Origin: a virus
Lineage: Duplodnaviria > Caudoviricetes
IMG/VR virus record: IMGVR_UViG_3300042862_000334
Location: 1-61,519 of that record
Strand: one strand, 5' to 3'
DNA: 61,519 nt
Position 1 is the first letter of the stretch, and each line of letters opens with the position of its first letter. Below the pieces are notes generated by a model. It made no database searches and was not told where the DNA came from. It saw only the letters and a list, made by a program, of their open reading frames with translations. This document shows positions 1 through 44,256 of the stretch, in pieces. Made by a program: the position numbers and the translations under genes.

Positions 1-3000
1 AGTCAACTCACACCCCAAGAAAAACAATTCATAGCTTCTCAAAAAGAATGGGAAAAAAGAATGGTAAGAGAAGCAATAAAAGAAGCATCACTAAGTGGAG
101 CAACTTCTCTACGTTTTCCTACACCATATACTTTGAGTGTTATTGAAGGGTATATTAAAGGTGGTGGGTTAACTTCAACTACAGCAGGAGATATTATTGA
201 GTATTTAGGAGAAGATTACATTATTTTAAATGGTAGTGAAGATGACGGCGTAAGAATTATTCCTGTTAGAAATATGACAAAAGTTCTAATAGAGGACTTT
301 GAACAATTGAGAGCAAAAGGAGAAGTAGGAGAAGACGAAGATATTTATGACTACTATCTTGGAGATATTGGAGAAGGTGTAGAATCATCTGACGGAGAAT
401 ATTTTTACTACAATCGTAACTATAGACCACAAGGATTAGAAACTATTGAACAAGGTAGTATAGATGGGGCAACAAAAGAAACATTTGACTTATCAGACCT
501 ATCAGAAACACAACAAACAGTTGCTCGTAAATACGAAGAAATCGCAGAAATACTAAAAAAAGAAAAACCTGTTGAAGTAGTAACAGATGAAAATGGATTT
601 GATTGGTATGAAGCACCTATAACACAAGAGGACACACAAAACCCTGTTGTAGCTTTCTCGTTATCAGAAGAATCTCCAACTCTAAAATACCAAACACAAG
701 ATGGACAAGTGTTTTCAGACTACGGACAAGCTTTAAGAAACACACAAGGAGAAGATTTAGAAGCAGGATTAAACACTACTGAAGGATTTAAACCGTTATT
801 CACTATTTCTACAAACACTAATATAAATACAACAGAGGGTATGATTAACAATTTAATCAAATCAGATTTGTTGTCAGGTGAGAAGTATATAGAGAACGGA
901 GTAAATTATTACAAACCACAAGGAAAATCAGAAGCTAAACAAGTGGCTAATGCACAAGTGGTAAAAGATTTACTGCAACAAAAGTTCGGCGTAAAAGCTG
1001 TAAAAGTAAGTAAAGATGGATTTATTTCTATTATAGAAGAAAACAAGAGAGAGAATATTTCTTTGGCGGGAAGAACAATAAAAATAGCAGACTTGCATAA
1101 AATGGACTTCAAAGAGTTGAAAGATAACTTTGGAGAAGACACTGCTATAAATATATTAGCCAACAAAGAGTTCTTAAACGCTTCAAAACAAACAACAGTT
1201 TCAAAACAAGAATTTATCCCTGAAAATGAACTACAAGAAAAGCTTATAAACTTACTAAAAAAGTTCGGCATAAAAACATTAGCTTTTGAAGAATATATTA
1301 AAAAATATGAGATAAGAAATAAACTTCCTATAAACGCAAGAGCTTTAGCTGATTTAGTAAATAAAGTGGTGGCATTTAAAGATGGAAATATTGAGGAAGA
1401 CGACTTATTAGAAGAAACAGCTCACCTTATTGAAGCCTCAATTCCGCAAGAACAAAAAGAAAATATTCTTAGAAATATTCATAAAACTAGAGAGTGGGGA
1501 CAGTTCTCAGAGCAATATAAACAAATATATGCAACAGAGGAAGAAGTAAGAAAAGAAATCTTAGGTAAAGTCATAGCTAATTCGTTTAAAGAACAGTTTC
1601 AAGCAAGAAATACCAATCAAACGGAAGATAGCATCATAAATAAAATTAAAGAACTTGTAAAAGAGTTTTTTGATAGAATTTCCGCATACTTCCAAGACAG
1701 CTTCCAAAAAGAATTAGATACACTTAATAAAGCGTTATATACTAACTTAATGCAAGAAACTTTGCAGTTAGATTTAGGTAATGCAAAAGGAGTGTTTTTC
1801 AATGCAACAGAAGCTTCACCAAAAATCGACAACTTAAAGAATAAGCTTGATAAAATGGTGGAAGGTCTAAGACAAACCACTAGAGAACTTTCTAAGTCAG
1901 CCACTAATTCGGCGGATAGAGCATCTTTAAATATAGCTGAAGAAGCCTTAGAGAGAGGAGAATCTGTAAGAGCTATTGCAACACTTACACAATTAATTGA
2001 TTCACAAGTTAACCAAATTAACAGGTCTTTAGAAAACACTAAAGAAGGAGAGCTTCCAATTTCGGCAGAGGAAAATGTTGTAGCACAAGCACTTAAAGAA
2101 ACTATGATTCCATCTTTGGCAGAAGTTTCGGCAAAGCTAAATCAAAAAGACCCAACAGAAAAAGCTTTGTTAAATGAAGTGCGAGAAGTAATTTCAAAAG
2201 CAAATACAGTTTTTGGAAAAGTTACAACAGCAAGAAAAGCTACTTTCAATGTTATGGTGGATAGCATGATTGAGAAGTATAATATGACAGATAAGGAAAA
2301 AGCTGAATATCAGAATATGATTAATTTAGCTTTGTCAGGAGTACAAGCAGATACAGACTTTTTACACGCACATATTGGTTCTTTGTTACTAGCTAAAAAT
2401 CCACTTTTGAATATGGCAGGACTTATAACCGAGAGAATGAATTTAAGAAAAAATACTCTTGCTCAACCTCTTGTTAAAAAACTTGTGGATGCCTTCGGTA
2501 AATTCTCAAATTCAGATTTGTTAAAATTAATTGACAATAAGACAGGAGATTTAATTCAAGAAAGAGATATTGAGTTAGAGAACAAACTAAAATCCGCAGA
2601 AAAAGTTAAAATAGCAAATAGTATTTTAGCAGAAGCAGGATTAGAAAAAAGAACAGATGAAAATACAGACTTTAAAGAGTTCTTCAACAACTTAGAAGAT
2701 AATAATTTAGGTGTAGCATTCAATGCACAATACCGTCAATGGGAAGAAGATAAGATTAATGTTTTCTACTTCACCGAGCAGTATAGAAAAGCTATGAAAA
2801 TACACCCTATTAAAAACTTCTTTGAAAAAGGTGGAACGCTTACAAATGAAGAAATATCTCCAAACGCAATAGAAACAGATAGAGCTTTACGCGGGCAATC
2901 AACTCAAATTAGAATGAACGCTAAAAATGGTGTTTTGACTAAATCAGATAAAGCCGAGCTTAAAAAAGTTGAGAAGTTAAGAGCAGAACTTTCTAATCCA

Positions 3001-5931
3001 AGAGATTCAGAGGGTAACTTACTTAAAGGTATTAAGGAACACTACAATGAAAACTTACAAAAGTGGGTGGTGGAAATTGATAATACAGATGAAGGATTTT
3101 ATTCTTTATCAGAAGAACAAAAAACAAAAGTAGCTGAAATAGTTGGTCTTAATCAATTAGCTTACTTAAAACAAGATTTTTTCAAAAATAAAGAAGCTCA
3201 AGACTTAGAAAGATTTATAGCAGAAGTAGAGTCTTTACCTATGGAAGAGCAGTGGAAATTCATTGAAGAAAATGCTACGGTTTCTTATCCTAGAGAATAT
3301 TTTGACAACTTTAAAGAAAATCCTAATTTAGTCCAAAAACTAACAGCTTTAGGAACACAGGATGCTTTAGAAAAAGTAAGACAAATTAGAGCTAAAGAAT
3401 CTTTAAGAAATAAAGTTATGCGTGAAATCTCGGTTTACAATAAGCCAGGAGAAACTAACTTTGTTGAGATGCATTCGACGCAAAAAGAAACTATAAAACT
3501 AGCTCAAACAGAATTAGAAAATCTTTACAGCCAAGCTAAAAAACTTCTACCAAAAGACGAAGCAGAAAGAACAGAACTAAATATCGATTCAAGAGTAAAT
3601 GATGCTTACTTAAATCACTTGGAAGATAGTGGAGAAGATGAGTTAACATTTATTATGAATAATGTAACTTCAACAGGTTTATCTGCTATTGAGGGTATGA
3701 GAGCTATTTTGACAGGAAGTAAGTCTACCAACAAAACGTTCAATAAGTATTTTACAGATGATTTAATAAATGAAAGAGGAGAATTAACATCACAAGCAAG
3801 ACAAGCTCTTATTGAATATGGAAAAACTCGTCTATTACCATATCTAAGAAAAACAGAACCTTTAGGCTATACGCAAGCTAAAAACACACTGTCCGCTTCA
3901 GAGTTTATAAAAAGAACGGATTTAGTTTCTATTTCGCCAAACATATCTTACAATGAAAGAATTAATCAAGATGTAAATCAAGAGTATTTAGACAATAGAG
4001 ATGCGGGAAGACCACAAATAAAACAGTCTTGGATAGAGAAAGTACGTTCAGAGCAATATGACAACTTATTTAAAAACGGCGCAAATAAAGAGTTAAAAGA
4101 AGGATATGAAACTCTAAAAACTCTTATGAAAGAAGCTGTTGAAATGCAAGGACTTACAGGTAGAAGAGATATTTATATGAGACCACAAGTAAGAGCAACA
4201 GAAATTGAGCGTTTTACAAGATTAAGTCCAACAGCAATATCTCAAAATATTCAAGAGTTCTTCCAATTCCGACCTGAAGAAAAAGAATTAGGAGAGCAAA
4301 TTAGTCAGGGTATATACACAATACCTAATTACTATAATCAACGATTAGAAGACCCAAAAGAGGTGTCTAACAACTTCTTATATTCATATTCGATGTATTT
4401 TGTCAAGTCGGCGGAAAATAAAGCTAGAAGAGAGAATATCGGAGACATGTTCGTAATAGATGATGTTCTAACAGATACAAAGTTTGAAAGTAAAAGAGCA
4501 GACGCTACTCAAACCTATAAGATGTTTAAAAATTTCAAAGAATTCAATTTCTATGGAGTTCAAGAATCATTCTCCTATGAAATACCTATTATGGGTAGAA
4601 CTATTGACGTAGGTAAGGTTATGAAAGTACTTAATAATTTTGGGAAGAAGATTAATTTGACCACTTTTAGTGTGCCAATCACATCTTTAGGGCAAAGTTT
4701 TACAGCGAAGGCTATGGAAAGATTCATCGGTCAATACATAACACCAACCGCTTCAAATGAAGGAAATAAACTATTTAAGCAACATGCAACAGATGCTATG
4801 AAGGAGTCTATGGGATTTCAGTCTAAATCTTTCTTGAATGTTACACTTGAAGCACTTGGGCTTTACTCGTTAACTCACAGGCTAGAAGATTCACAATACA
4901 ACAAAGCAGGTAGAACTCTCTATAATGTAGGAAGTAAGTTACATGAGATAGCCAATTTCCCTGTTGTGCCAAGAGCTGTTCTAGGAATTATCTGTGATTA
5001 TAGATATGTTGATGGAAAGATAATGGATGAGAAAACATTTAAAAAGCTTAATAAACAAGGCAATTGGACAGACTATAAAATGTTGAAGGACGATTGGGCT
5101 TTAGCTATTAAAGACGGAGTTTTAGATTTTAACAATGAGACTTTTGTAAATGCTGTAAAAGATAAGGTTACATTAAGAGAAGGACAGTCTTTGGAAAGTT
5201 ACTTAGAAGATGTACGACTTAATATTTCAACAAGAGCTCTAGCTTTCGTTCAACAAATTGACTCACAAATCCCGCAACACCAAAAATCTGTTGCACAAAG
5301 AGATGCAAGAATTAATTTTTTCCTGTCACATCAAAATTGGCTTCTTTCAGCTTTACCTCGTAGATTCCGTAACAGAAGTTTTAGTTATGCAGAAGGGGAG
5401 TTTCAAGAAGGTAGTTGGCGAACTGTTTGGGAACTGATTAGAAATTCCAAGGGCAATCCTAGAAAAATGCAAGAACTTTACAAAAACATGGACGATTTTC
5501 AGAAGAAAAATATTGTAAGGGGCGGGATGGAATTAGCTTTTGCAAATGCATTAGCTTTAGTTGCACTAGTGTTAGCTAATTATAATGACGATGATGAAGA
5601 CCCTAACTATTTATTAGCAGTAGCAGATATGTTTGCAACTAGAATAGCTAACGAACAAATATCATCAACTGTAGCTTTACCTAATTCAATATATAAGGCA
5701 ATGAGTCCTAGTATTATGTTGAAGCAGAAGATGGAAGCATGGGTAAAAGTAAATCAACTGTTTGATAGCGAGAAACAAGGTAAGTATTTAGGAAATTTAG
5801 TACCGTTTTTTAGAGATATTACTCGTTTTCAAGACCCTATTGAATATCGTCAAAGTTATCAGTACCTACAGATGGATAATAAAGATGTACTATATAACTA
5901 TGCTTGGTCGTCAAATTTCCTAAAAGAATAG
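1..5931 (+). CDS. Giant phage virion-associated/ejection-type protein (5'-partial, >1976 aa)
   Basis: Frame is open from base 1 (SQLTPQEKQF...) into the 1956-aa ORF. It is largely helical/coiled-coil, with a zincin-like EETAHLIE...EILGKVIA segment and a hydrophobic stretch near the C-terminus, as in giant virion proteins of Bacteroidota phages. Function is inferred. Confidence 0.6.
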   Translation, partial: SQLTPQEKQFIASQKEWEKRMVREAIKEASLSGATSLRFPTPYTLSVIEGYIKGGGLTSTTAGDIIEYLGEDYIILNGSEDDGVRIIPVRNMTKVLIEDFEQLRAKGEVGEDEDIYDYYLGDIGEGVESSDGEYFYYNRNYRPQGLETIEQGSIDGATKETFDLSDLSETQQTVARKYEEIAEILKKEKPVEVVTDENGFDWYEAPITQEDTQNPVVAFSLSEESPTLKYQTQDGQVFSDYGQALRNTQGEDLEAGLNTTEGFKPLFTISTNTNINTTEGMINNLIKSDLLSGEKYIENGVNYYKPQGKSEAKQVANAQVVKDLLQQKFGVKAVKVSKDGFISIIEENKRENISLAGRTIKIADLHKMDFKELKDNFGEDTAINILANKEFLNASKQTTVSKQEFIPENELQEKLINLLKKFGIKTLAFEEYIKKYEIRNKLPINARALADLVNKVVAFKDGNIEEDDLLEETAHLIEASIPQEQKENILRNIHKTREWGQFSEQYKQIYATEEEVRKEILGKVIANSFKEQFQARNTNQTEDSIINKIKELVKEFFDRISAYFQDSFQKELDTLNKALYTNLMQETLQLDLGNAKGVFFNATEASPKIDNLKNKLDKMVEGLRQTTRELSKSATNSADRASLNIAEEALERGESVRAIATLTQLIDSQVNQINRSLENTKEGELPISAEENVVAQALKETMIPSLAEVSAKLNQKDPTEKALLNEVREVISKANTVFGKVTTARKATFNVMVDSMIEKYNMTDKEKAEYQNMINLALSGVQADTDFLHAHIGSLLLAKNPLLNMAGLITERMNLRKNTLAQPLVKKLVDAFGKFSNSDLLKLIDNKTGDLIQERDIELENKLKSAEKVKIANSILAEAGLEKRTDENTDFKEFFNNLEDNNLGVAFNAQYRQWEEDKINVFYFTEQYRKAMKIHPIKNFFEKGGTLTNEEISPNAIETDRALRGQSTQIRMNAKNGVLTKSDKAELKKVEKLRAELSNPRDSEGNLLKGIKEHYNENLQKWVVEIDNTDEGFYSLSEEQKTKVAEIVGLNQLAYLKQDFFKNKEAQDLERFIAEVESLPMEEQWKFIEENATVSYPREYFDNFKENPNLVQKLTALGTQDALEKVRQIRAKESLRNKVMREISVYNKPGETNFVEMHSTQKETIKLAQTELENLYSQAKKLLPKDEAERTELNIDSRVNDAYLNHLEDSGEDELTFIMNNVTSTGLSAIEGMRAILTGSKSTNKTFNKYFTDDLINERGELTSQARQALIEYGKTRLLPYLRKTEPLGYTQAKNTLSASEFIKRTDLVSISPNISYNERINQDVNQEYLDNRDAGRPQIKQSWIEKVRSEQYDNLFKNGANKELKEGYETLKTLMKEAVEMQGLTGRRDIYMRPQVRATEIERFTRLSPTAISQNIQEFFQFRPEEKELGEQISQGIYTIPNYYNQRLEDPKEVSNNFLYSYSMYFVKSAENKARRENIGDMFVIDDVLTDTKFESKRADATQTYKMFKNFKEFNFYGVQESFSYEIPIMGRTIDVGKVMKVLNNFGKKINLTTFSVPITSLGQSFTAKAMERFIGQYITPTASNEGNKLFKQHATDAMKESMGFQSKSFLNVTLEALGLYSLTHRLEDSQYNKAGRTLYNVGSKLHEIANFPVVPRAVLGIICDYRYVDGKIMDEKTFKKLNKQGNWTDYKMLKDDWALAIKDGVLDFNNETFVNAVKDKVTLREGQSLESYLEDVRLNISTRALAFVQQIDSQIPQHQKSVAQRDARINFFLSHQNWLLSALPRRFRNRSFSYAEGEFQEGSWRTVWELIRNSKGNPRKMQELYKNMDDFQKKNIVRGGMELAFANALALVALVLANYNDDDEDPNYLLAVADMFATRIANEQISSTVALPNSIYKAMSPSIMLKQKMEAWVKVNQLFDSEKQGKYLGNLVPFFRDITRFQDPIEYRQSYQYLQMDNKDVLYNYAWSSNFLKE

Positions 5932-8026: not shown

Positions 8027-9740
8027 TTAATATATTTTAATGTCCGCCATCCAAAATAAGTCATTAATATCCCTTGAAGAAAGTTCGTTTGGGAACTCAA
8101 ACAACATATCAAACTCTTTACTCATTGCATCTTCACAGTGGAGTCTTAACATACACCAACCATTATCTACTTCAAGTTTAAAAATATCTTTGTGTTGTTT
8201 TAATAACATTAATTTTCCAATAAATTTCTTCTCATTAAAGCGTTTGGCTAATTCTCGCCATTGAGTTTCTGAGTATCTCATTTTAAAAAAATATAAGTTG
8301 TTACTATTTTTAAAAGATTGTGACTTTCTCTTAATTCTTTTTCCGTCCAATCGTTTCTACCTAATTTTAATTCGTACATTTTACCGCCAGAATAAAGGTA
8401 AACATCAAACCCCCAATACGTTATCAAATCAAATGACAACACACTTAAATCCGTTGTTATTAAATCTTTTTGACTATCATATTTTATTAAAGAGTCTACT
8501 TCTTGATGATAGTGAAGTGGGTTTGGATAATCCTTGTGTGGTTCTGTTAAAAATACTGCCTTCATAACAACTTTTTGTTTAAGTATAATTCTAACTTTTT
8601 AATTTCACTCAATTTCCAGTCATGTTGTTCGTTCAATATTAACTCAACCCCAACTAAATCTTCGAGAGTTTCTTGCTTCATTTTATTTTCGCGCAAAAAA
8701 GATAAAACAGAAACAGCAATTTTAGAAGAACTTTCAATCCAATAACTATTAGATTTTCTCCATTTAGCTTTCTCTAACCAACCAGAATCTTTAATAGAGA
8801 CTCTTTCTAGCCATTCTGTGACACTTTCTCCTTCTCTACGTCTATTATAACCTTCAGGTCTAAAAGAAGCTTCAAATGTGTGGAAATTAATTCCGTCTTT
8901 AAGTTCTATCATTACAGCTCTTTTAATAAGTTAATTACTTTTTCTATATTCTCAAATTTAATTACAAGACCTTCACTGTTATCGTGACTGTTCTTGTATA
9001 ATATCTCTGTTATTTTTTCTTTTTTGTCGGCATTTTATAACTCTTTTAACCGTTCAACAATTTCTAAAACTTCTTTTTCTGTTACGTCATATCCTTGAGC
9101 ACCTATTCTAGCATCATTCCCAAACCTTAAAAGAATAAGCTCGTCATCATCACTATTTTGATGTATTTCGTAGTATTCTCCATCCAAATGAAATCCTGGT
9201 AAAAATCCGTGATAGTCAAATGCGCGGGAAAGAGGGTAAAAGACAGAAAAAACTAAAACTTCCTCTAACCTTTCTAATTGTTGGTATAACTCAAATATAC
9301 CTTTTGTTAATGTTACTTTGTTCATATTTGTTTTGTTTTTAAATTTTACTTAATGAATGAAAAGAACCTTGTCCACAATAAGACTCTACTTGATACCCTC
9401 TCCATTCATACATACCTGAAGTAAATATATTATATTTTTTCTTTTTAGCTTTTTTACCTAATTTAGACAAAGCACTATAAAGAGGAGTATATAAAGAAGT
9501 TTCTCCGTCATAATGTTGATTCCAAAGAATATCTCTTCTTTTTTCTGCGTGTTTATGAAATTTCTCAAACAGTATTTCTAAACTTTCGTCAGTTTGTTCT
9601 TTTAAGAAGTTTTTAAATTTCTTTTTCCATCTTTTGTAGAATTCATCTTCTCTATTCCACTTTTCAGCCATTCTATCCATAGAAGCTTGACCTTCTTCAG
9701 AATCTAACCAATCTTTCCATTTTTCAAAATCTATTGCCAT
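8027..9740 (-). CDS. Cluster of hypothetical phage proteins (8027-8279/8350, 8278-8565, 8562-8912, 9035-9325, 9339-9740)
   Basis: Co-oriented, abutting ORFs; no recognisable motifs. Confidence 0.6.
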
Positions 9741-9810: not shown

Positions 9811-9842
9811 AAAACCTCCGAAAAATTAATTTCAGAGGTTTT
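9811..9842 (-). terminator. Terminator downstream of the GIY-YIG gene
   Basis: AAAACCTC...GAGGTTTT hairpin. Confidence 0.65.
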
Positions 9843-9860: not shown

Positions 9861-10799
9861 TTAGACGTATATTAAAGATGTTTTGTTTTTACAAGGAGAG
9901 TTACCATTTAACATCTGTTTCATGTGGTTATAACTATATTCATAATATTTAGAAGCTTCACTCAAAGACTGATAAAAAATACCAGTTTCTGTATCGAGGA
10001 CATATTTCATCCAACCTCTTTTTTTATTTGCTCTTTTTAGATTATTGTTAAAATCTTCTAAATACTGTAAACAAGTATCATTACTATTTTTTAATTTATA
10101 ACCTAATGTTTGTGATGGCATATTTATACTTTTAGCAGCTTCTACTATAGTATTGAAAATATCCAATGTTTCTATATTTATAATTTTCCTAAAGTTTTTA
10201 CTTTCTTTCACAAAAGGTAAAAGTCCTTTTTCATAATCTTCTGCATATACGTAGGATGTATCATTATTTGTACGTCTATTTAACTTACTTTTAAAAGCAC
10301 TATAACATATAGGTAAGTTTTCAGAAGCATCTAAGGCACAATCATAAAAGATACCAGTTTCTAAATTTAACACTTCTTTTGCTAAATGATGTTTACCTCT
10401 TGTTTTACCAAACATTATATTTTTTTCTCCGTCTTGGTTACCCTTATTTGATTTTTTCCAATTATTAATCTGCTCTTGTGTTTTTATTACACCTACTGTT
10501 CCCTCACCACCATCTGTTAAATTAACCAATGTTCCGCCACAACAATCAGCACGTTTATAGTAGTCAATCAAAATACACTCTAGTTGACAAGCTGCATCCC
10601 ATGTTATATTATGAGATAAAATCTCTACTTCAAAGCCATATTTTTCAACAACTTTAGTCCACCACTTATTTCTGCCATTTTTTGTATAAGCTCTAGAGTA
10701 TTTTGGTTGATTTCCTATACCTATATAAAAAACCTCACTTGTACCTAATTTTGTATGTCTATAAACATAAGCATCTTTAACATCCTTTTTATCTCGCAT
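9861..10799 (-). CDS. Free-standing GIY-YIG homing endonuclease with NUMOD-type repeats
   Basis: N-terminal YVYRH...FYIGIG, E in LECILI, NLTDGGEG, and three repeats of (VLNL/IINI/VLDT)ET(G)IF. Likely start is MRDKKD at 10799. Confidence 0.8.
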   Translation of the reverse strand: MRDKKDVKDAYVYRHTKLGTSEVFYIGIGNQPKYSRAYTKNGRNKWWTKVVEKYGFEVEILSHNITWDAACQLECILIDYYKRADCCGGTLVNLTDGGEGTVGVIKTQEQINNWKKSNKGNQDGEKNIMFGKTRGKHHLAKEVLNLETGIFYDCALDASENLPICYSAFKSKLNRRTNNDTSYVYAEDYEKGLLPFVKESKNFRKIINIETLDIFNTIVEAAKSINMPSQTLGYKLKNSNDTCLQYLEDFNNNLKRANKKRGWMKYVLDTETGIFYQSLSEASKYYEYSYNHMKQMLNGNSPCKNKTSLIYV

Positions 10800-10815
10800 A
10801 GTATTTAAAAATGAA

Positions 10816-10949
10816 AAACTTCTAACAAAAACCACTACGAATAGTCTTTGAAAGAAGTTTCTCGGTAAAAATAATATCTTAAAAGTTAATCAGTGTTCGT
10901 AGCAAAAATTAACAATACAAATATACGAAAATTAATTCAGATTACCAAA
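10816..10949 (-). promoter_or_regulatory. Promoter plus two-hairpin kissing-loop 5' leader
   Basis: TTTG-N20-TATATTTG at 10949-10918; hairpins at 10816-10860 and 10885-10913 with complementary loops CTACGAA/TTCGTAG. Confidence 0.6.
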
Positions 10950-16981: not shown

Positions 16982-17626
16982 CTACGAAACTGCACAACCG
17001 AGAACATATTGTCCTACATTTGGGTCAACGCAATTACGAATTATTTGGTCTTTTCTGTGTTTCATTTTATATTCTCGTAAATCAAAATAACCTTTTTCAG
17101 AACTTCCTCTTTGGTTGTGAGTTAATCCGTCTTTAATTTCAGTTTGTGGTATTTCAAAGTTTGCCCAAAATAAGTGTCTACCAAGTTTTGCAGTTGGTTT
17201 TACAAATGGTTCGTAATAAGGCTTTACATTTTCAACTACAAACTTTATATCTGTGTTCTTTGTAAAGTTCTGTAAAAAGGTTATTTCAGCCCACAATCTC
17301 ATATCAGGCATTACAGCATCGTAACTTCCGCTTTTACTTGCCATCATTCTTACTTTGCTATGGCTTTGGCAAGGTGGAGAACTCCATATAAAATCAAACT
17401 CTCTCCAATTTTTAGCCAAATAATCGTGTGCATCAGTAACTATTACATTATCGTTTGGGTGTAATTGCTTGTAAACATTTGCAATTTCTTCGTTGTATTC
17501 TATTGCAGTTACTTCTACATTTTCCCAATGTTTGCGGTTTCCTCCAATTCCAGCGTATAGGTTTAAAACCCGTACTGGTGCTAACATCGGTTTGGCAAAA
17601 TTGCCGTTTTCGTTTTCTTTTGACAT
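16982..17626 (-). CDS. C5-cytosine DNA methyltransferase (short form), cassette cargo
   Basis: Motif I VLNLYAGIGG, motif IV SPPCQSHS, motif VI VENV; start codon lies inside the attC-like site. Confidence 0.8.
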   Translation of the reverse strand: MSKENENGNFAKPMLAPVRVLNLYAGIGGNRKHWENVEVTAIEYNEEIANVYKQLHPNDNVIVTDAHDYLAKNWREFDFIWSSPPCQSHSKVRMMASKSGSYDAVMPDMRLWAEITFLQNFTKNTDIKFVVENVKPYYEPFVKPTAKLGRHLFWANFEIPQTEIKDGLTHNQRGSSEKGYFDLREYKMKHRKDQIIRNCVDPNVGQYVLGCAVS

Positions 17627-20143: not shown

Positions 20144-21800
20144 TTAATAATTTTCTTCAAGAACTGCCATCTGTAATTTTTCCAAAGCATTTTCGCTTAA
20201 AAATTGATAAACAGAATCGTCGTTAATTTTTACATCCATTATAGAGAATCCACCTTTGTAACCTGTTGTTGTGTCAGCTTTTTCATAATCTCCAATTACT
20301 TCAAAATTTACGTTGTCTAATTTAATGTTATGCGTTTCCATTGTTTTTGTTTTTTAAAACTTCGTTAGCTGACTTTTCTAATGCTTCCGATTGTAGTTTG
20401 TTTATAAATTGGTTCTTTAAATCTTGTTGTTTTTCTTCTGAAATACTATCTAATATTCCTGTTTCTACGAAAAACCTAAATACTTTTTTTTTGATTTTAG
20501 GCGGTTTCTAAATACTCTTCTTCTATTAACTTTTTTATATCTATGTCATTTAGGTCAGTGCAATCTTTTAATAGAGCTATAAACAGTTCTAATTGGTCTT
20601 GTGGAATTGCAAATCGCGCCAAAGAAAATGAAACATAGGGGAAACAGCTATCATCAAGTTCTACTTCTGCTAATTCACATCCAGAAATACCCTGCTTTTC
20701 GTGATAGTAAATATGAGTTATAGTATATTCATTATCTTTTTTAATCCATAAATGCTGTTTTATCTCTTGTGGCTTATTTTTGTCGTCTATGCAAATGACT
20801 TTAGGCTTGTTCATTTTCCTTTTTAAAAATTTCTAATAGTTGTTTTATGTTATATGTTTTACCATTATTAAAATCATCTTCACTTTTAGCATATTTATTG
20901 TTATCATATTTATGCTGATAGTATTTTTTATCAATAAATGAAGCAAATTTTATAGCAAAATCTTCAGCTATTTTTTCACATTTTTCAGCATCTAACATTA
21001 AGTAGTGCTTATTTTCATAATTAAATTGTTCTTTAAGATTCATAACTCTCAATTTTTTTTAAAACTTTTTTCCAATATTCTGTGGACTCTTCAATGTCAT
21101 TTACAAAATTCCCAGCATCTGATAGTATTGGTAAACTTGGACTTGCACTTATTATTTTTTTAACGGCGATTATTGCACATTGTTTGGCTGATTCTATATT
21201 TGAAGTTATCTCATAGCCGTCTTCACAACTTACCCAGCTATAATCTCTGAACATTTTTACTAATTCTTCAGCTTCTTGTTTTGGTGTTTTTATCATTTTT
21301 TAGGTCTTTTTATACAACTATTTTCAAAATCTAACAAATCTGAATCTTCTCTTTCAGCTACATAGTGTGGCAATTCACACCATAGACCATCATCATCAGT
21401 GCAATAATAATTGGTAAACTCAAATACCCCATTAAATTCTTTTACTTCTGGTTTACTACACCAACCAATACATCTGTCATTATGTGGATGATTTTCTTCA
21501 GGTGCAACCCAATCTATCCAATCTGGTACTCTACTCCAATCTATTTTCATAATTCTAATTTTAAATTTATTTTTTCGCGCATACGAGGCACGAGTGCTTA
21601 AAGATTAAAAAGACAGACTAAAAATAACAGCTTTTAAACCGTCTATAATCATGTATATAAGCAGTACTTCTTTCTTCCTGTCCTTCAATTAAAGGAGCTG
21701 TGCTACCATCAATCCATATTTCAAAAGCTTTCTGCTCTTCTACAGGTAGTTCATCAATGAAGATGTATGGTATCTCCGAACCTTCTTTATATATTTTCAT
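20144..21800 (-). CDS. Cluster of small hypothetical proteins (20144-20341, 20497-20814, 20801-21052, 21033-21296, 21293-21550, 21618-21800)
   Basis: ORF track; overlapping chain. Confidence 0.6.
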
Positions 21801-22249
21801 AACTTTTTTAAATTACAATATTGTTGATATTGTTTTTCTATTATACTTTCATCTACTTTTCTTTTTCGACCCATATTACGAGTTAAAGCCTCTTTTAAAG
21901 TTACATCAAAGTAAACTACTTCTGTAGGTACTTTAAACTTTTCAAAGTTTTTTTGGTACTCTATGCGTAAATTAGTTGCATCGACTATAACATCTTTTCC
22001 GCGCTTTAACCAAAAACTTATAAGATTATCTTGAACAGCTGTTATTTGATTCTCTAAATAATTAAAATCATTTCTACTGTAGTATTCTGATATTGTATCT
22101 TCAAGATATCCATAATGAGCCTCTCTTAACTTATCTCTATTTACGACAATATACCTTTCTGGATTGTGTCTAACTGTTGTAGAAGCAAATGTACTTTTCC
22201 CACTTCCACTAATTCCACATAAAATTATTATTTTACTCATGTCTTCCAA
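21797..22249 (-). CDS. Polynucleotide kinase-like P-loop protein (AAA_33)
   Basis: GISGSGKS, NRDKLR, VDATN, RNMGR. Confidence 0.8.
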   Translation of the reverse strand: MEDMSKIIILCGISGSGKSTFASTTVRHNPERYIVVNRDKLREAHYGYLEDTISEYYSRNDFNYLENQITAVQDNLISFWLKRGKDVIVDATNLRIEYQKNFEKFKVPTEVVYFDVTLKEALTRNMGRKRKVDESIIEKQYQQYCNLKKL

Positions 22250-22847
22250 TAGTTAATTTATTTTTTAGTAGTTGTTGTATTAGCTCGTAAGAAAACAAGC
22301 TGTATTCTCCAAACATATTATAGTAAGCATCAATTCCAACATCCATACTTTTATATTTTCTTATTTCCTTAATTACAGGATTTTCATCTCCATGTAAATG
22401 TCCACTTAAATGAAATGCGCCGTCCTCTTGGTAATTCCAGCAAAATTGCGGGAAATGTGAACAGCAAATAATTTGACCTTCAATATTTAATTCTAAATAG
22501 TCTCCTAAATAAATAAGCTTATCACATTCATGCCAAGTAGAAAATAACTTTCCTCTGTTACAATGATTGCCAAAAAGCATAATAACATTTTTACAAACTA
22601 AACTATTTAAAAACTGTTCGTAGTTTTTATCTTGCATCATCGTATCCCCGCACAAAACAAGTAAATCATTCTCTCTTACGAGTTTATTAGTTTCAACTAT
22701 AATGTGGTCATTCATGTGTTCTACGCTGTCAAACTTTCTACCAAAGTCTATCACTGCCTTATGGTCTATGTGAAAATCTGACGAAAAATAAACCTTATCT
22801 ACATTTAAGGTTTGTTTTGGGTAGCTTGTTAATATTTTAACTTTCAT
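22233..22847 (-). CDS. Metallophosphoesterase
   Basis: SDFH, CGD, GNH, SHFP, GHLH. Confidence 0.8.
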   Translation of the reverse strand: MKVKILTSYPKQTLNVDKVYFSSDFHIDHKAVIDFGRKFDSVEHMNDHIIVETNKLVRENDLLVLCGDTMMQDKNYEQFLNSLVCKNVIMLFGNHCNRGKLFSTWHECDKLIYLGDYLELNIEGQIICCSHFPQFCWNYQEDGAFHLSGHLHGDENPVIKEIRKYKSMDVGIDAYYNMFGEYSLFSYELIQQLLKNKLTIGRHE

Positions 22848-23827
22848 AACTTTTTATATTCTGGCTTAATTAATCTATATATCTGTTCATCTATTCTTTT
22901 ACCGTTTCTTAGAGAAAATAGGATATGTTTATATTTATAGTCTTTTATTATTTTGGCAAATTCTTTATCTGATTCTATATGTTTATATTTTAAATATTCT
23001 AATTTAATAGTAGATTCAAAAAAAGAGAATAAACCTATTAAATATTCCTCATACTCTCTAACAGAATTATAAAACTCATCTGGATATCCACTTAATAACT
23101 CTAAAATACTATCGCCGTTTCTCAAACAGTCCCAAACAGCTGTAGTTGACATTTGTGACATCATTTTGTGTAATCTCAAATATTCAGCTCCTTTTATTTT
23201 ACAACGCTCTCCGTTTGAAAATTTGACTACATATCCTTCTTCATTATCTTTTATATCCTCACATAGTTTTTCTAAAGGTGTATCTTTTCTGTGAATTCTT
23301 GCGTGAGGTAAAAGCCAACAATATATATCTTGTTCATCTCCTGTTTTAGTATTAAAAACTGCTGTTAAAATTACATCTTCATAATCTCCATAATCCACCA
23401 CAATTCTATTTTCTTTAAAAATTATTTCAAAACAGTATGTGTTATCTTTATCTAAAGATTTTAAATCATATTTTGAAAGTAATTCAAATCCTTTTATAGC
23501 CTGTTCAGAAGTAAAAGAACCTCTTGATGCAAAAACCCATTCGCCGCCAAAAAAGAATAAAATACCTAAAGAACCGTCGTATTTAGTATATATCTCATAA
23601 TCGTCAGTTACATTAGTTCTACCTTCAGATAAATTAAAAAACTTCTTAAAAGGTCTTGCAACTATATTTCCCGAATTATCTACAACAAGTCCACGACATT
23701 GTAAAGTTACTTCATCCCAAAGACCCTCATACTGCACTCTATCTGTATAATTGTAAACCGTTAAAGGTAATGTTGGATGAACTTGACTGTAAAGTAACCC
23801 ATCTGCTTCATATTGTTTTAAATTCAT
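22844..23827 (-). CDS. T4 Rnl1-like RNA ligase
   Basis: QCRGLV, RPFKKFFN, motif I KYDGSLG, EGYVV, KIK. Confidence 0.85.
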   Translation of the reverse strand: MNLKQYEADGLLYSQVHPTLPLTVYNYTDRVQYEGLWDEVTLQCRGLVVDNSGNIVARPFKKFFNLSEGRTNVTDDYEIYTKYDGSLGILFFFGGEWVFASRGSFTSEQAIKGFELLSKYDLKSLDKDNTYCFEIIFKENRIVVDYGDYEDVILTAVFNTKTGDEQDIYCWLLPHARIHRKDTPLEKLCEDIKDNEEGYVVKFSNGERCKIKGAEYLRLHKMMSQMSTTAVWDCLRNGDSILELLSGYPDEFYNSVREYEEYLIGLFSFFESTIKLEYLKYKHIESDKEFAKIIKDYKYKHILFSLRNGKRIDEQIYRLIKPEYKKL

Positions 23828-23970: not shown

Positions 23971-25320
23971 TTACAAAGGGGTTTTATAATTTAACGTATT
24001 AAGTTCTTTAAAATTAATACAAGGGTTTACTGAAAAACACTCGGTATGTCCTTGGAAATAATTTAAAGGTTTGTATTTATGTTTTTTATATTTATTTAGT
24101 ATATACTGTTCTAAACTTACACAATCAAAAACATTCCAAACTAAAACAGACACATCTTTTATCTCATAACCGCTTTGTTTTAACAAATCTTTTTTACGTT
24201 TTTTATAGTTTGAAGATATACCTAATTTCCAAAAAATTTCATTCTCATTAGAAAATTCCATAACATACAGTAAGCACTTCATTTCTTTAGAAGTCTCTAT
24301 CTCACCATTGGTTAAATCTTTTCTATAAGATGACATTATTTTAGCACATGTCGGACATCCTCCATTATTATCAACGTGATTATTAGGTCTTTGAAAAAAA
24401 GAACCGTGGTATTTACATATTATTTCAACACGTATTCTGTTATTTTTATAATCTACTTTAGAATAATTATACTTATCACCATGAACTTCTTTTGCTTTTT
24501 CTATAAATTTTTCAGTGTTACCTGTATTCCAACTAACTCTCTTAGCACATTTACTACATTGTTTCCCTCTTAGATGTTTTTGAGCCCTTTGTTTAACATT
24601 ACCATGTATTTCACAGAAATAGCTTATAACAGAATTTGTGTTTTTATAATCTGACAGGTCATAAATAAGGTTATTACCAAACTCTTGAAATCTCTTTAAC
24701 ATTTCTTCTTTTGATATACTATAATCAACACCTCTTTTTTCATAGGAGCATTTTTCACAATCAGACCCTCTTATGTGGGAGTGCCCATTTTGTATATACT
24801 CTCCATGAATAGGACAGATAATAGTTAAATGTTCGTCTAATCTTTTAAAATCGTGTACTAAAGAGTAATCAAATTTAAAATTATGTATTTCATTACTTTT
24901 TCGTATAAAATCCTCTTTTGTTGTTCTATTTATTTTAGCTCTACTTTCCAAACCACACTTAGGACATCTATCACCTCTATCCGAATGAGCACTAGGAGCT
25001 TGTTCAAATTCACCGTGTAAAGGACAGACTATTTTAATTTTTGTATTATTGTTGACATAAACTGATAAAGAATAATCATAAAAGTTATTATGTTTTTTAG
25101 AGGCTTTTAAAATCCATTCTTCTGTTGTTAGTTTTTTACTCTTAGTTAAAGGGACTATTTCATAATTAAAATACTTTGTGATTTTTTCTAACATTTTTTG
25201 ACTTACTCCAAATTTTTTGTATAGGTTCTGCTTACAGAACTTAAAATCAGTCTCTTGTTTTAAAATGTCTAATGTTTCAGGATTTATTATTAAAATCCAC
25301 TCTTCAAATGTTTTAGGCAT
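23971..25320 (-). CDS. Homing-endonuclease-like protein: repeated CxxHG zinc modules (DUF723-like) plus C-terminal GIY-YIG/T5orf172-like domain
   Basis: Four CPxHG...H...CxxC repeats; LYVMEF...WKLGIS...LEQYIL...GHTECF. Confidence 0.7.
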   Translation of the reverse strand: MPKTFEEWILIINPETLDILKQETDFKFCKQNLYKKFGVSQKMLEKITKYFNYEIVPLTKSKKLTTEEWILKASKKHNNFYDYSLSVYVNNNTKIKIVCPLHGEFEQAPSAHSDRGDRCPKCGLESRAKINRTTKEDFIRKSNEIHNFKFDYSLVHDFKRLDEHLTIICPIHGEYIQNGHSHIRGSDCEKCSYEKRGVDYSISKEEMLKRFQEFGNNLIYDLSDYKNTNSVISYFCEIHGNVKQRAQKHLRGKQCSKCAKRVSWNTGNTEKFIEKAKEVHGDKYNYSKVDYKNNRIRVEIICKYHGSFFQRPNNHVDNNGGCPTCAKIMSSYRKDLTNGEIETSKEMKCLLYVMEFSNENEIFWKLGISSNYKKRKKDLLKQSGYEIKDVSVLVWNVFDCVSLEQYILNKYKKHKYKPLNYFQGHTECFSVNPCINFKELNTLNYKTPL

Positions 25321-25343: not shown

Positions 25344-25480
25344 AAACTTACTATCAACCAGAGCAGTGGTTTTCAAGTAAGTTTCAGCTATTATAATTTT
25401 TATATTTAAATTTGTTTTAAAATCAACCTGCTCGAAGAAATTAAAGCACAAATATACGAAAAATATTTTAATTATCCAAA
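25344..25480 (-). promoter_or_regulatory. Promoter plus two-hairpin kissing-loop 5' leader
   Basis: TTTG-N20-TATATTTG (25480-25449); hairpins at 25344-25384 and 25413-25448 with loops GAGCAG/CTGCTC. Confidence 0.6.
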
Positions 25481-36910: not shown

Positions 36911-37768
36911 TTATTGCTTAGATAGAAAGAAACAGAAATCAAAGTCTAAATGCTTTAATTCTTTTAGTTCTTTTGCGGGCTTATAAAATTCTGTTGTTGT
37001 GAATTTGGATATTAATTCTTTGTAAAGTTTTCCATTTTTAAAAACCAAGTTTCTGTATCCTGCATACCTTAAAGATAGGTATTCTTTTTGAGAACATTTC
37101 TTTATGAATTCAAACTGTCTTTTAGTTTTTATTATTCCTGCCGAAACTAATTTATTTTTCCAATATTTCCCGCTCCCTTTACTTTTTGTTTCTCCAAATT
37201 TTAATTTTGAAAATCCTTGATTAGATAAAACTGTATTAGCATTGAATGTATCTTGGTTTTGAGCGTATTCTTTATCCGCATCTCTCCAAGAATTTCTAAA
37301 CTTGAATTGTTGTGCTGTTAAAGTGTAGCCTTTAGCCATTTTCTCAATTATCTTATTTTGCTCGTGTCTTCTATCAATTCGATTCTTTTGTTGTTGCTCT
37401 ATTCTAAAAACTCTCACTCTGAAACTGAATAATTTTGTTTCTTGGTAAGAAGATATTTCTATTGGAACAACCTTTTTACTACCATATTTTTTATTAATTT
37501 TGTTTGTACCTATTAAAACAAAGTTTCCTTTAGTATCAAAATAACATAGTTTTTCTTTGATTAGTATCTTTATGTATTTTCTTAATGTTGTTACTGATAT
37601 ATCAGTTTTTTGTTTTAAAGTGTGGTATATGTTTCTGTTCTCTTTATAAATTTTTATTTCTCCATTTTTACCATATTTTAGTTTAGCATATATAGCCAAC
37701 AAATTATCACCGCCGACTTCAAATAAGTCAGAATATAGCTTTGAGTTAATGTTGGTGTAGTGTTGCAT
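36911..37768 (-). CDS. Basic winged-HTH DNA-binding protein (possible replication initiator)
   Basis: LKQKTDISVTTLRKYIKILIKEKL HTH-like segment; likely start is MQHY at 37768. Confidence 0.5.
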   Translation of the reverse strand: MQHYTNINSKLYSDLFEVGGDNLLAIYAKLKYGKNGEIKIYKENRNIYHTLKQKTDISVTTLRKYIKILIKEKLCYFDTKGNFVLIGTNKINKKYGSKKVVPIEISSYQETKLFSFRVRVFRIEQQQKNRIDRRHEQNKIIEKMAKGYTLTAQQFKFRNSWRDADKEYAQNQDTFNANTVLSNQGFSKLKFGETKSKGSGKYWKNKLVSAGIIKTKRQFEFIKKCSQKEYLSLRYAGYRNLVFKNGKLYKELISKFTTTEFYKPAKELKELKHLDFDFCFFLSKQ

Positions 37769-37786
37769 TGTATATAAATAAAAAAT

Positions 37787-37974
37787 GTCCTGAACGCAAA
37801 AATGAGACAAGAGCCACCACGCATCTTAAATCTCAATCTTTGTTTCAGGACGAACCTTACTATCTTAAATTGACTTTGGTGGTGGACAAAATCTTATATT
37901 TTCCGCTAAAAAAGTAAAAACAGAATAATCTATTTCTACCCTACAAAAATACAACAAAAACTGTAAACAACAAA
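37787..37974 (-). promoter_or_regulatory. Promoter plus two-hairpin kissing-loop 5' leader
   Basis: TTTG-N19-TATTTTTG (37974-37944); hairpins at 37787-37851 and 37872-37893 with loops CCACCAC/GTGGTGG. Confidence 0.6.
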
Positions 37975-38246
37975 ATTCGTTATATTATATAAAACAAAAG
38001 TACGACTTTTTATTCACACCTACAAAAACCTTATAAAGTTACTTTGTAATTAAGAAAACTCCAATCTACACAATGTATAACCGTTGTTAATACAACTGTA
38101 AGTTTAAAACAAAAATATAACCAAAGTAAAAGTCCTCTTCCTATTTAAGAATTCTATACAATCTTGTTATTAAAGAGTGCCTTACTTTTCTTCTGCAAAT
38201 ATACAACATTAATCTAAGAAATCAAAAAAACTAAAATTGGTTGTCA

Positions 38247-40832: not shown

Positions 40833-41630
40833 TTAAATAGGCAAATTTATTTTACCTAAAGTTTTATTTGAAACGTGACAATAAATCTGAGTTGTTCTAA
40901 TGTTCTGATGTCCAGCTAATTGTCTTATTATTTGCAAATCTGTTCCTGATTCTAAAAGTGTTGTAAAACTACTATGACGTAGCAAGTGAAAATGATAGTC
41001 CTTACCTATATATTTTTTAACTATCTCGTTACAACTTCTGTGAGAATATTGCAGACCAAACTGCCCGTTAAACAAGAACTCTTTCGGTGTATACTCCTTA
41101 AAATATTCGCGTAAAAGATTTAAAACAACAGAAGATAAAGGTACAAACCTGTCCTTTCTTCCTTTACCGTTTTTAATTAAAATCAACATCCTTTTAGAAT
41201 CAATATCTTCTAATTTTAAATTACAAACTTCACTAACTCGCATCCCTGTAGAGAAAGCTAAAGTGATTATTGCTTTGTGCTTCAAATTCTCAATTTTTGA
41301 AATCTTATCTAACAAAAAATCTTTATCAATTACTCTTGGTAGTTTCTTTTCAGTTTTTGGTCTTTCTATTTTGTTTAGATGAACATCTTTTTTATTTAAA
41401 ATATATCGCGCAAAAAGCTTCAAACAACCAATAAACTGATTTTGTTGAGCAACAGATGAAAATTCCCTACTTTCAAGAAAACAAACAATGTCTTTAGTTG
41501 AAACTTTGTATGGGTCTTTACAATTTATTTCTTTTAGATATTGAAAAAGTACTTGTTTATAAACCTTAATTGTGTTTTGAGAATAGTTTTTATATCTCAA
41601 TTTATTTTCAAAAATTTCGAGAACTTTCAT
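40833..41630 (-). CDS. Tyrosine recombinase (XerD/IntI-related, no IntI-specific insertion)
   Basis: N-terminal YSQNTIKVY SAM-like domain; catalytic set GMRVSE, GKGRKDR, HLLRH, AGH, TTQIY. Start MKVLEIF is supported by the truncated paralogue. Confidence 0.92.
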   Translation of the reverse strand: MKVLEIFENKLRYKNYSQNTIKVYKQVLFQYLKEINCKDPYKVSTKDIVCFLESREFSSVAQQNQFIGCLKLFARYILNKKDVHLNKIERPKTEKKLPRVIDKDFLLDKISKIENLKHKAIITLAFSTGMRVSEVCNLKLEDIDSKRMLILIKNGKGRKDRFVPLSSVVLNLLREYFKEYTPKEFLFNGQFGLQYSHRSCNEIVKKYIGKDYHFHLLRHSSFTTLLESGTDLQIIRQLAGHQNIRTTQIYCHVSNKTLGKINLPI

Positions 41631-43884: not shown

Positions 43885-44256
43885 TTAGGACGACACACCG
43901 TTAATAGAAAGTAAATTTTCCCAACCACAAGAAACATCATAACCTAAATCATCGGCTTGGTTTACAGTCAATGCTTTTAATTCAATTGTTTCAGTTGGTT
44001 CTTTTGGCATTTCTTTATAATCCCACCATTCCGAACCATCATACTCGCCTCTTTCAAGCCACCAATTTTCGCCAACCACTAATAAATCTTGTGCAACTTT
44101 AGATGAACCAAATCCACTTTCATAATCAACATCAGCAGTTTTTTTGAAATCTTCCCAAGTTGTTTTATGAGTTGAAGTTCCTACCCATTTTACATCAGTT
44201 TCTTTTTTGTTATTACTCTCTAATAATTCAAGAGTTTCTTTTAATAAATTGCTCAT
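43885..44256 (-). CDS. Conserved phage hypothetical cassette protein
   Basis: DYESGFG...WWLERGEYDGSEWW pattern. Confidence 0.65.
   Translation of the reverse strand: MSNLLKETLELLESNNKKETDVKWVGTSTHKTTWEDFKKTADVDYESGFGSSKVAQDLLVVGENWWLERGEYDGSEWWDYKEMPKEPTETIELKALTVNQADDLGYDVSCGWENLLSINGVSS

Follow-up and report, generated by a model that had tools for sequence, protein, structure and literature searches.

Promoter-proximal leaders with two hairpins and covarying, complementary loops precede nuclease and DNA-binding genes in a group of uncultured freshwater phages

Three nuclease or DNA-binding genes of an uncultured phage are separated from their promoters by two hairpins whose loops are complementary to each other, raising the question of whether such leaders are copies of one RNA element and how that element would act on the genes behind it. 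The stretch of DNA analysed here (the window) is a 61.5-kb IMG/VR virus record of 29% G+C with an estimated completeness of 43%, and nearly all of its genes from 8.2 kb onward lie on the minus strand. Its DNA polymerase (PolA) is 50% identical to that of phi4:1 and phi17:2, two Cellulophaga phages with genomes of 145 kb that infect a marine flavobacterium. Near-identical DNA is present in 24 metagenome runs, all of lake-water or metagenome DNA, and the phages that carry the element are a group of uncultured freshwater phages. A 1956-aa ORF at 61-5931 (plus strand) runs opposite to the rest of the window; it probably encodes a large virion protein, and the 143-kb record of a related phage (G003) contains a counterpart with 23.5% identity. 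A tyrosine-integrase-like ORF at 40836-41630 (minus strand; phrog_1, E=3e-44) and another at 43888-44256 (minus strand) that weakly matches the excisionase family could reflect a temperate lifestyle or a mobile insert; the rest looks like a large lytic-type phage.

A regular-expression search for the Bacteroidetes-type promoter motif (TTTG, 17-22 nt, TAnnTTTG) returned ten sites in the window, nine of them on the minus strand. These motifs fit the consensus of Flavobacterium johnsoniae, in which the available text of PMC6847099 places a G at -5, and from this fit we infer a host among the Bacteroidota. The three genes in question have the motif (TTTG-N19-21-TAnnTTTG) 115-170 nt upstream of their ATG, as against only ~15-55 nt, judged by eye, for the remaining promoters. 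On the minus strand, which is gene-sense, each leader has, between promoter and start codon, first a hairpin on the 5' side (hp2), then a spacer rich in A/U and finally a long hairpin on the 3' side (hp1). The parts of leaders 1, 2 and 3 (W1, W2 and W3) are as follows.

10918-10949, minus strand: promoter of leader 1, Bacteroidetes type, found by regular expression; TTTG, 20 nt, TATATTTG
10885-10913, minus strand: hp2 of leader 1 (MFE fold), 5'-terminal; 6-bp stem, 17-nt loop, sense word CTACGAA at 10896-10902
10864-10884, minus strand: A/U-rich spacer of leader 1, containing TTTAAGATA, which recurs in other members
10813-10863, minus strand: hp1 of leader 1 (MFE fold), long; apical sense word TTCGTAG at 10835-10841; U-run at 10800-10812 after it
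9861-10799, minus strand: ORF behind leader 1, 312 aa; GIY-YIG/NUMOD-like nuclease, all matches below threshold
9811-9842, minus strand: simple intrinsic terminator (terminator scan) closing the cassette of leader 1; 13-bp stem, U-rich tail
25449-25480, minus strand: promoter of leader 2; TTTG, 20 nt, TATATTTG; promoter region 85% identical to that of leader 1
25417-25444, minus strand: hp2 of leader 2 (MFE fold); sense word GAGCAG at 25428-25433
25344-25384, minus strand: core of hp1 of leader 2 (MFE fold); exact 6-nt loop CTGCTC (sense) at 25361-25366, 5-bp closing stem, U-run after the base
23971-25320, minus strand: ORF behind leader 2, 449-aa endonuclease; DUF723 modules and T5orf172/MUG113 domain; PHROG phrog_681 'endonuclease', E=1.8e-73
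37944-37974, minus strand: promoter of leader 3, found by regular expression; -7 box conserved in orthologues
37913-37940, minus strand: hp0 of leader 3, an extra 5'-terminal hairpin present only in wHTH-type leaders; pairs with compensatory changes
37872-37893, minus strand: hp2 of leader 3; 7-bp stem with one G-U pair, sense word CCACCAC at 37879-37885
37787-37851, minus strand: hp1 of leader 3, a 65-nt hairpin; loop GTGGTGG (sense) at 37814-37820, G/C-rich base, then A and U6
36911-37768, minus strand: ORF behind leader 3, 285-aa conserved phage protein (wHTH family); weak HTH_11 match (Pfam)

The sequence bears out the layout given in a preliminary description of this locus: on the plus strand the complementary words lie at 10835 and 10896 (CTACGAA/TTCGTAG), 25361 and 25428 (GAGCAG/CTGCTC), and 37814 and 37879 (CCACCAC/GTGGTGG), the AAACTT/AAGTTT stem base is common to the first two leaders, and the hairpins lie between upstream promoter motifs and the ATGs at 10799, 25320 and 37768 (minus strand). 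With promoter, leader, ORF and terminator, the first unit is therefore a self-contained, autonomous cassette. Directly downstream of the second cassette, polynucleotide kinase, phosphoesterase and RNA ligase genes stand side by side at 21800-23827 (minus strand), a cluster that is likely an RNA (tRNA) repair module. The third leader lies in a stretch of ~480 nt (37769-38246, minus strand) that has no ORF of at least 60 aa and separates a PD-(D/E)XK nuclease gene from gene 3; among the promoter-like motifs there (38226-38196, 38026-37995 and 37974-37944), only the last is conserved in relatives.

In MFE folds of the minus-strand RNA, the words of all three leaders are found in or at the apex of separate hairpins, in agreement with the two complementary loops described before, except that the 3' word of leader 1 is not in an open loop: it straddles the hp1 apex and is partly paired via weak U-A/U-G pairs. 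The loops of hp2 and hp1 are complementary over 6-7 G/C-rich bases. Leaders 1, 2 and 3 fold with energies of -29.4, -25.8 and -34.7 kcal/mol; against 200 dinucleotide shuffles, these correspond to z-scores of -4.97, -2.34 and -3.91. The first paired base of hp2 in leader 1 is 4 nt past the -7 box, that is, at the predicted +1, and in the seven nuclease-type leaders (W1, W2, G1a, G2a, G3a, G6a and G7a) this distance is 4-8 nt. With the G of the -7 box at -5 (PMC6847099, available text), the predicted +1 therefore falls on the first hp2 base or up to 4 nt earlier, and a nuclease-type transcript is predicted to begin with a hairpin; in wHTH-type leaders, hp0 occupies the 5'-terminal position ahead of hp2. 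The spacer is A/U-rich, frequently with TTTAAGATA or a near variant. The hp1 hairpin, with internal loops and a G/C-rich base, spans 41-65 nt in the window and up to ~90 nt elsewhere, and 4-30 nt separate its 3' base from the AUG. In the MFE folds the start codon is unpaired, preceded by an unpaired A/U-rich stretch of 13-18 nt (W1 and W3), ~28 nt (W2) or ~6 nt (G2c). The wHTH-type leaders have an ATG in the hp1 stem as part of a conserved GATG(C/T) that adjoins the loop on its 5' side (for example, window 37821-37825). Leader-peptide attenuation was rejected: by eye, the frames opened by this ATG differ in length and share no conserved peptide, and nuclease-type leaders lack the ATG.

How often this architecture recurs was examined by several routes, which between them brought the total to 22 elements. 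Their loop pairs are of 16 distinct kinds, and they are spread over 12 records, namely 11 from viruses and one metagenome contig. These counts are lower bounds, since the MFE-based detector misses members, G3c, L139 and L140 having been found otherwise. Two relatives of gene 3, at 92% and 78% protein identity, carry the same leader with the loops changed on both sides, and scanning their two records returned three additional promoter-hairpin-hairpin-ORF units. The nuclease-type leader pattern matched 28 stretches of viral contigs, two of them real; among the other 26, a loop complement of at least 7 was seen in none and one of 6 in two. The wHTH-type pattern matched six stretches of viral contigs, five of them real, and 39 stretches of metagenome contigs, of which three were real and the other 36 had a complement of at least 7 in no case and of 6 in one. 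A promoter-anchored scan of eight virus records (603 kb) detected the hairpin pair after 14 of 266 promoter-like sites (13 elements), against 3 of 1064 offset control windows, one of the three being a true element. Three further leaders with wholly new complementary loop words were found at wHTH homologues of 31-34% protein identity, and inspection of nuclease paralogues added one element. A combinatorial detector, defined by a complementary word with short flanking stems, gave 57 minus-strand and 39 plus-strand matches in the window and, being too permissive, was dropped for genome scans and kept only as a second look at nuclease paralogues. Distant nuclease homologues in other phage groups (L009-L019) have no such leader, a candidate in L016 being rejected as a match in coding-looking DNA, and phi4:1, the closest cultured relative, has none at 52 promoter-like sites. 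Upstream of one distant wHTH-type leader, L139 ~860-1000 looks by eye like tRNA genes.

The proteins encoded behind the elements are diverse, comprising at least four recognised nuclease families plus a GIY-YIG-like gene, the wHTH family and a primase-like gene.

Behind W1: GIY-YIG/NUMOD-like ORF (sub-threshold)
Behind W2, G1b and G2a: phrog_681 endonucleases with DUF723 and T5orf172 domains
Behind G1a and G3a: Endonuclease VII/HNH zinc-ribbon proteins
Behind G6a, and G6d by tblastn: phrog_953 HNH endonucleases
Behind G7a: LAGLIDADG enzyme
Behind V41: primase-like protein (BT4734-like_N and DUF5906)
Behind W3, G1c, G2c, G7c, L137, L139 and L140: wHTH family
Behind G3c, G4c/G6c and G6b: no adjacent ORF

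The GIY-YIG label previously given to the first gene holds only below the Pfam cut-offs (I-TevI_DNA-bd E=0.004, NUMOD1 E=0.018, GIY-YIG E=0.27), and its product has no sequence match in the PDB. The wHTH family has 104 unnamed homologues, none of them in cultured phage records or GTDB genomes, and matches no PHROG and no Pfam family, apart from the weak HTH_11 match of the protein behind leader 3. An ORF without a promoter of its own follows within ~30 nt behind 18 of the 22 copies (L099, on a short contig, is not judgeable). Behind the four stand-alone copies (G3c, G4c/G6c and G6b), the next 480-760 nt contain neither an ORF of at least 60 aa nor a wHTH remnant, G6c having a 42-aa ORF 386 nt downstream. 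Such stretches may represent long 5' UTRs, further non-coding RNAs or genes in decay; the G003, G004 and G6c loci gave no Rfam match there, and the sequence is somewhat G/C-richer downstream of the element (G003 ~131990-131590, G004 ~8560-9300, G006 ~61450-60900). The same leader variant stands before different nucleases in G2a and G6a, where similarity stops just after the U-run, and between the records of G4c and G6c similarity breaks right after the element. Nucleases do not carry the element as a rule: it is present at only 9 of the 25 nuclease-like loci that the eight scanned records contain (three of the 25 short or weak), and the remainder either have short leaders of the ordinary kind or directly adjoin the gene before them. 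None of the 62 other window ORFs of at least 85 aa is a recognised homing endonuclease. Autogenous control, raised earlier as a possible role, is unlikely because unrelated protein families share the module, in one case behind the same leader variant, and four copies have no adjacent ORF.

If the paired loops matter, they should change together, and the claim that they differ yet stay complementary held across the 16 distinct pairs, with compensatory changes in the loop-loop helix and the stems of orthologues. RNAalifold applied to seven wHTH-type leaders predicted hp0, hp2 and hp1, with compensatory changes in 20 of 36 pairs, and on an alignment of eight orthologues (A5) the consensus helix that it chose was the loop-loop helix itself. 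When the hp2 stem, the kissing helix and the apical hp1 stem were scored on A5, 93.3% of cells paired, as compared with 35-48% when partners were slid by 1-3 columns. The covariation score was 0.229 versus 0.120 ± 0.022 in shuffles, none of 500 reaching it, a control that overstates significance because the eight sequences are related, whereas the slide control is free of that weakness. Both sides have changed in three of the seven kissing pairs. The six unpaired cells of this helix all come from G1c, whose 3' loop MAFFT had shifted by one column at an indel; in its own register G1c forms eight pairs. Cognate loop duplexes have energies of -10.1 to -15.1 kcal/mol (-10.1, -11.0 and -13.1 for leaders 1, 2 and 3) versus -3.1 ± 2.5 for 406 non-cognate combinations, and in each of the 21 elements the cognate partner ranks first, a comparison that shows orthogonality rather than significance because the windows were centred on the cognate words. 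Among the three leaders of the window cross-pairs are weak, except for hp2 of leader 1 with hp1 of leader 3 (-7.7). Judged from the sequences, the two hairpin loops have a Watson-Crick complementarity that is maintained by covariation, as expected of kissing loops. The kissing complex is modelled as intramolecular, joining the hp2 loop and the apical hp1 loop by 6-9 bp, with a cognate pair of its own in each copy.

The subtypes are less readily united by sequence, only the short spacer motif and stem bases being conserved across them, and a MAFFT alignment of nine leaders of all subtypes together was structurally meaningless. A covariance model of the kind proposed earlier, built for the wHTH-type leader (R1), recovered its eight training sequences (E of 7e-13 or better) but gave only E=0.15 for L139 and did not find nuclease-type leaders; a common origin of the subtypes therefore rests on shared architecture and short motifs.

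Could such loop pairs simply be chance complements in A/T-rich intergenic DNA? In dinucleotide shuffles, a loop-loop complement at least as long as that observed arose in 6 of 1000 for leader 1, 80 of 1000 for leader 2 and 2 of 1000 for leader 3, so that leader 2 is weak and by itself unremarkable. Short complements are also common, since MFE folding in windows slid along the entire minus strand yielded 58 pairs of loops complementary over at least 6 nt. However, 55 of these are A/T-rich; three or more G/C occur only in the pairs of the three leaders, which belong to the most stable folds of the set. Chance is contradicted by the counts from shuffles and controls as well as by the covariation among orthologues, and we regard it as practically negligible. 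A feature acting at the DNA level, such as protein-bound inverted repeats, a cruciform or a homing/recombination site, would suit the mobility of nuclease genes and the breaks of similarity right after the element (G2a versus G6a, G4c versus G6c), as at recombination junctions. However, the sense strand has the lower MFE in 18 of 18 elements tested (mean difference -7.8 kcal/mol, Wilcoxon p=2e-4), compared with a mean difference of -1.4 ± 6.3 in 252 other promoter-downstream windows, and the G-U pairs that favour sense-strand folding argue for an RNA on the gene-sense strand. Sixteen loop words would moreover demand sixteen binding specificities, and stems and loop-loop helix keep pairing by compensatory changes despite sequence drift, which makes a DNA-level feature very improbable. 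We are thus confident, on sequence grounds, that these loci are copies of a conserved structured kissing-hairpin RNA, which would be transcribed from a Bacteroidetes sigma-A promoter on the gene-sense strand. The cis-regulatory RNA family put forward in the preliminary description is upheld insofar as a recurrent, covarying, structured sense-strand RNA lies between promoters and nuclease or DNA-binding genes, whereas simple occlusion of the start site is doubtful, since an unpaired stretch is left ahead of the AUG.

As to what the RNA does, we tentatively read hp1 as an intrinsic terminator between promoter and ORF, because its G/C-rich base is followed at once by a U-run, which would make the leader a promoter-proximal attenuator; we give this slightly less than an even chance. 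By eye, a run of at least five T at or adjoining the 3' base of hp1 is present in 17 of 21 elements, whereas a comparable run occurs in 11.5% of 453 ORF-upstream regions used as background, and hp1 shares its G/C base and T-rich tail with 30 simple hairpin-plus-T-run terminators detected in four of these phage records. Most transcripts would then end at hp1 as a leader RNA of ~100-150 nt, and the nuclease, wHTH or primase-like gene behind it would be expressed weakly, by read-through alone; contact between the loops would pre-organise the long terminator hairpin or tune the way it folds. Such a module would be portable, as when one leader variant precedes different nuclease ORFs, and could stand alone. 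An attenuator would account for the U-run, the terminator likeness, the stand-alone copies and the portability, and it fits the precedent of the terminators and hairpins that restrain T-even homing endonucleases (PMC2988022, available text). In this or another way, the kissing-hairpin leader probably throttles expression of the genes downstream. A structured RNA that is also an attenuator is, as the best single explanation, an evenly balanced proposition. Against an attenuator, the U-rich stretch could be merely the A/U-rich initiation region without a Shine-Dalgarno (SD) sequence that Bacteroidetes use, as described in the available text of PMC6847099. In addition, hp1 is atypically long and irregular beside the simple terminators of these phages and is not called by the consensus terminator scan, 4 of 21 elements lack the T5 run, there is no demonstrated reason for a terminator to need a kissing partner, and no alternative antiterminator fold was found in the leaders.

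An RNA that acts after transcription, as a 5' UTR element that stabilises the mRNA against 5'-end-dependent decay or tunes ribosome loading without any termination, is distinctly less probable, though several observations are in its favour. The hp2 hairpin starts at the predicted +1, as in 5' stabiliser hairpins, and the 3' base of hp1, at 4-30 nt from the AUG, is partly within the -20 to +20 zone that tunes initiation in Flavobacterium according to the available text of PMC6847099. T-even phages, moreover, control homing endonucleases by hairpins at the ribosome-binding site, the hairpin of seg43(25) lying just upstream and leaving that site uncovered (PMC2988022, available text). On the other hand, the start codon and the 13-18 nt (W1 and W3) or ~28 nt (W2) before it are unpaired, four copies have no adjacent ORF to regulate, and the G/C base and U-run of hp1 match those of real terminators. 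The stand-alone copies, which have a promoter, a terminator-like end and then 480-760 nt without an ORF, point instead to a separate small RNA gene, composed of a promoter, the hairpins and a terminator, whose product would act in trans, for example via the single-stranded spacer, the downstream genes riding on read-through. The conserved spacer motif and the shared leader of G2a and G6a, in which similarity ends after the U-run before different ORFs, are consistent with this, but a promoter-less ORF follows within ~30 nt in 18 of 22 copies, and loop words that vary between copies fit cis folding better than a shared trans target. We therefore consider a small RNA gene rather unlikely, and keep the attenuator as our working explanation.

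Known RNA families offer no home for the element. The Rfam scan proposed in the preliminary description, run on the leaders, matched no Rfam 15 family, which leaves the putative cis-regulatory RNA outside the families described there; the whole window gave no match at gathering thresholds, and nothing credible lay over the leaders at E up to 10 (W1 and W2 loci, W3 region) or up to 0.1 (five related loci). The sole overlaps were with four eukaryotic families in the W3 region, at E of 1.4-7.8 and about half the gathering score or less. Since the scan covered mini-ykkC, the purine riboswitch, the pistol, hammerhead and twister ribozymes, Flavo-1 and HEARO, a ribozyme or riboswitch identity is without Rfam support. 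In the G003 record (L079, 13408-13440, minus strand), Rfam does report a DUF805b RNA motif (48.7 bits versus a gathering score of 35.6, E=5e-11). Guanidine-II (mini-ykkC) and purine riboswitches are 5' leaders in which two hairpins kiss through their loops. Their loops are conserved ligand-binding sequences, whereas the loop words here, which differ in 16 ways, are free to change while remaining complementary, arguing against a ligand pocket; no conserved ligand-binding core was found, and a riboswitch was rejected.

Other leader RNAs of phages and plasmids are closer in design. The rep genes of plasmids pT181 and pIP501/pAMbeta1 are controlled by transcription attenuation driven by an antisense RNA, and those of IncI/IncB plasmids by an activator pseudoknot between a loop and a distal site. 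As is predicted here, a loop-loop contact precedes the gene of a DNA-binding protein and, in the plasmids, is coupled to a terminator or to translation, but there the partner is a separate countertranscript or the pairing opens the ribosome site, whereas both loops here belong to one transcript. The put RNA of phage HK022 and the nut sites of lambdoid phages, which suppress downstream terminators, are likewise nascent-RNA hairpins that lie directly behind phage promoters, early ones in their case; they act on termination, have no described kissing loops, and share neither sequence nor Rfam similarity with the element. The T-even homing-endonuclease genes (I-TevI/II/III, segB, mobE, segF and seg43(25)) are restrained by RNA hairpins or internal terminators (PMC2988022, here and below its available text), with intrinsic terminators near the 5' end of mobE and segF, and with a stable hairpin just upstream of an uncovered start region in seg43(25). 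Both systems thus place stable RNA structure before or in phage homing-endonuclease genes, where in T-even phages it limits expression (PMC2988022). The T-even structures, however, are single SD-sequestering hairpins or simple terminators that depend on the choice of early versus late promoter (PMC2988022), unlike the present elements, which have no SD, join two hairpins by a covarying loop-loop helix, follow directly on a host-type promoter and also serve non-nuclease genes. A translational repressor hairpin of the T-even type was rejected, the AUG and the stretch before it being unpaired in the MFE folds. Searches on kissing loops and on phage homing endonucleases found no description of such a leader in the part of the literature available to them. 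In its presumed action the element resembles leader-RNA controls already described for genes of phages and plasmids, yet it belongs to none of them; what is new is the covarying intramolecular kissing pair, the Bacteroidetes-phage context and a module shared by several nuclease families.

A broader and doubtful extension is that these leaders form a new class of portable, individually 'addressed' promoter-proximal RNA modules in Bacteroidetes phages, in which a private kissing pair would set the leak into selfish or dosage-sensitive genes. Unrelated homing-endonuclease ORFs would then be exchanged behind the element, which would serve them as a landing pad or reusable expression socket; private loop pairs would stop paralogous copies within one genome from cross-pairing, and the abundant short RNA may also act in trans. 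The molecular detail of homing-endonuclease gene control comes mainly from T-even coliphages, and we know of nothing comparable described for Bacteroidetes phages, whose hosts initiate translation without a leading Shine-Dalgarno sequence and use different promoters. With a drifting, always complementary loop-loop helix as its only strongly selected feature, the leader is a clean natural test case for the effect of a tertiary RNA contact on termination, stability or translation, and its loop pairs could be reused as mutually orthogonal regulatory parts. The element also marks the module boundaries of nuclease ORF exchange, and so bears on the spread of selfish genes in environmental phage populations. 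A simpler promoter-proximal, terminator-like design is seen in the related record G002 at ~17150-17200 (plus strand), upstream of a nuclease ORF like that behind leader 1, where the promoter motif lies 50 nt before the ATG and is followed by one short hairpin without a kissing partner and a T6 run.
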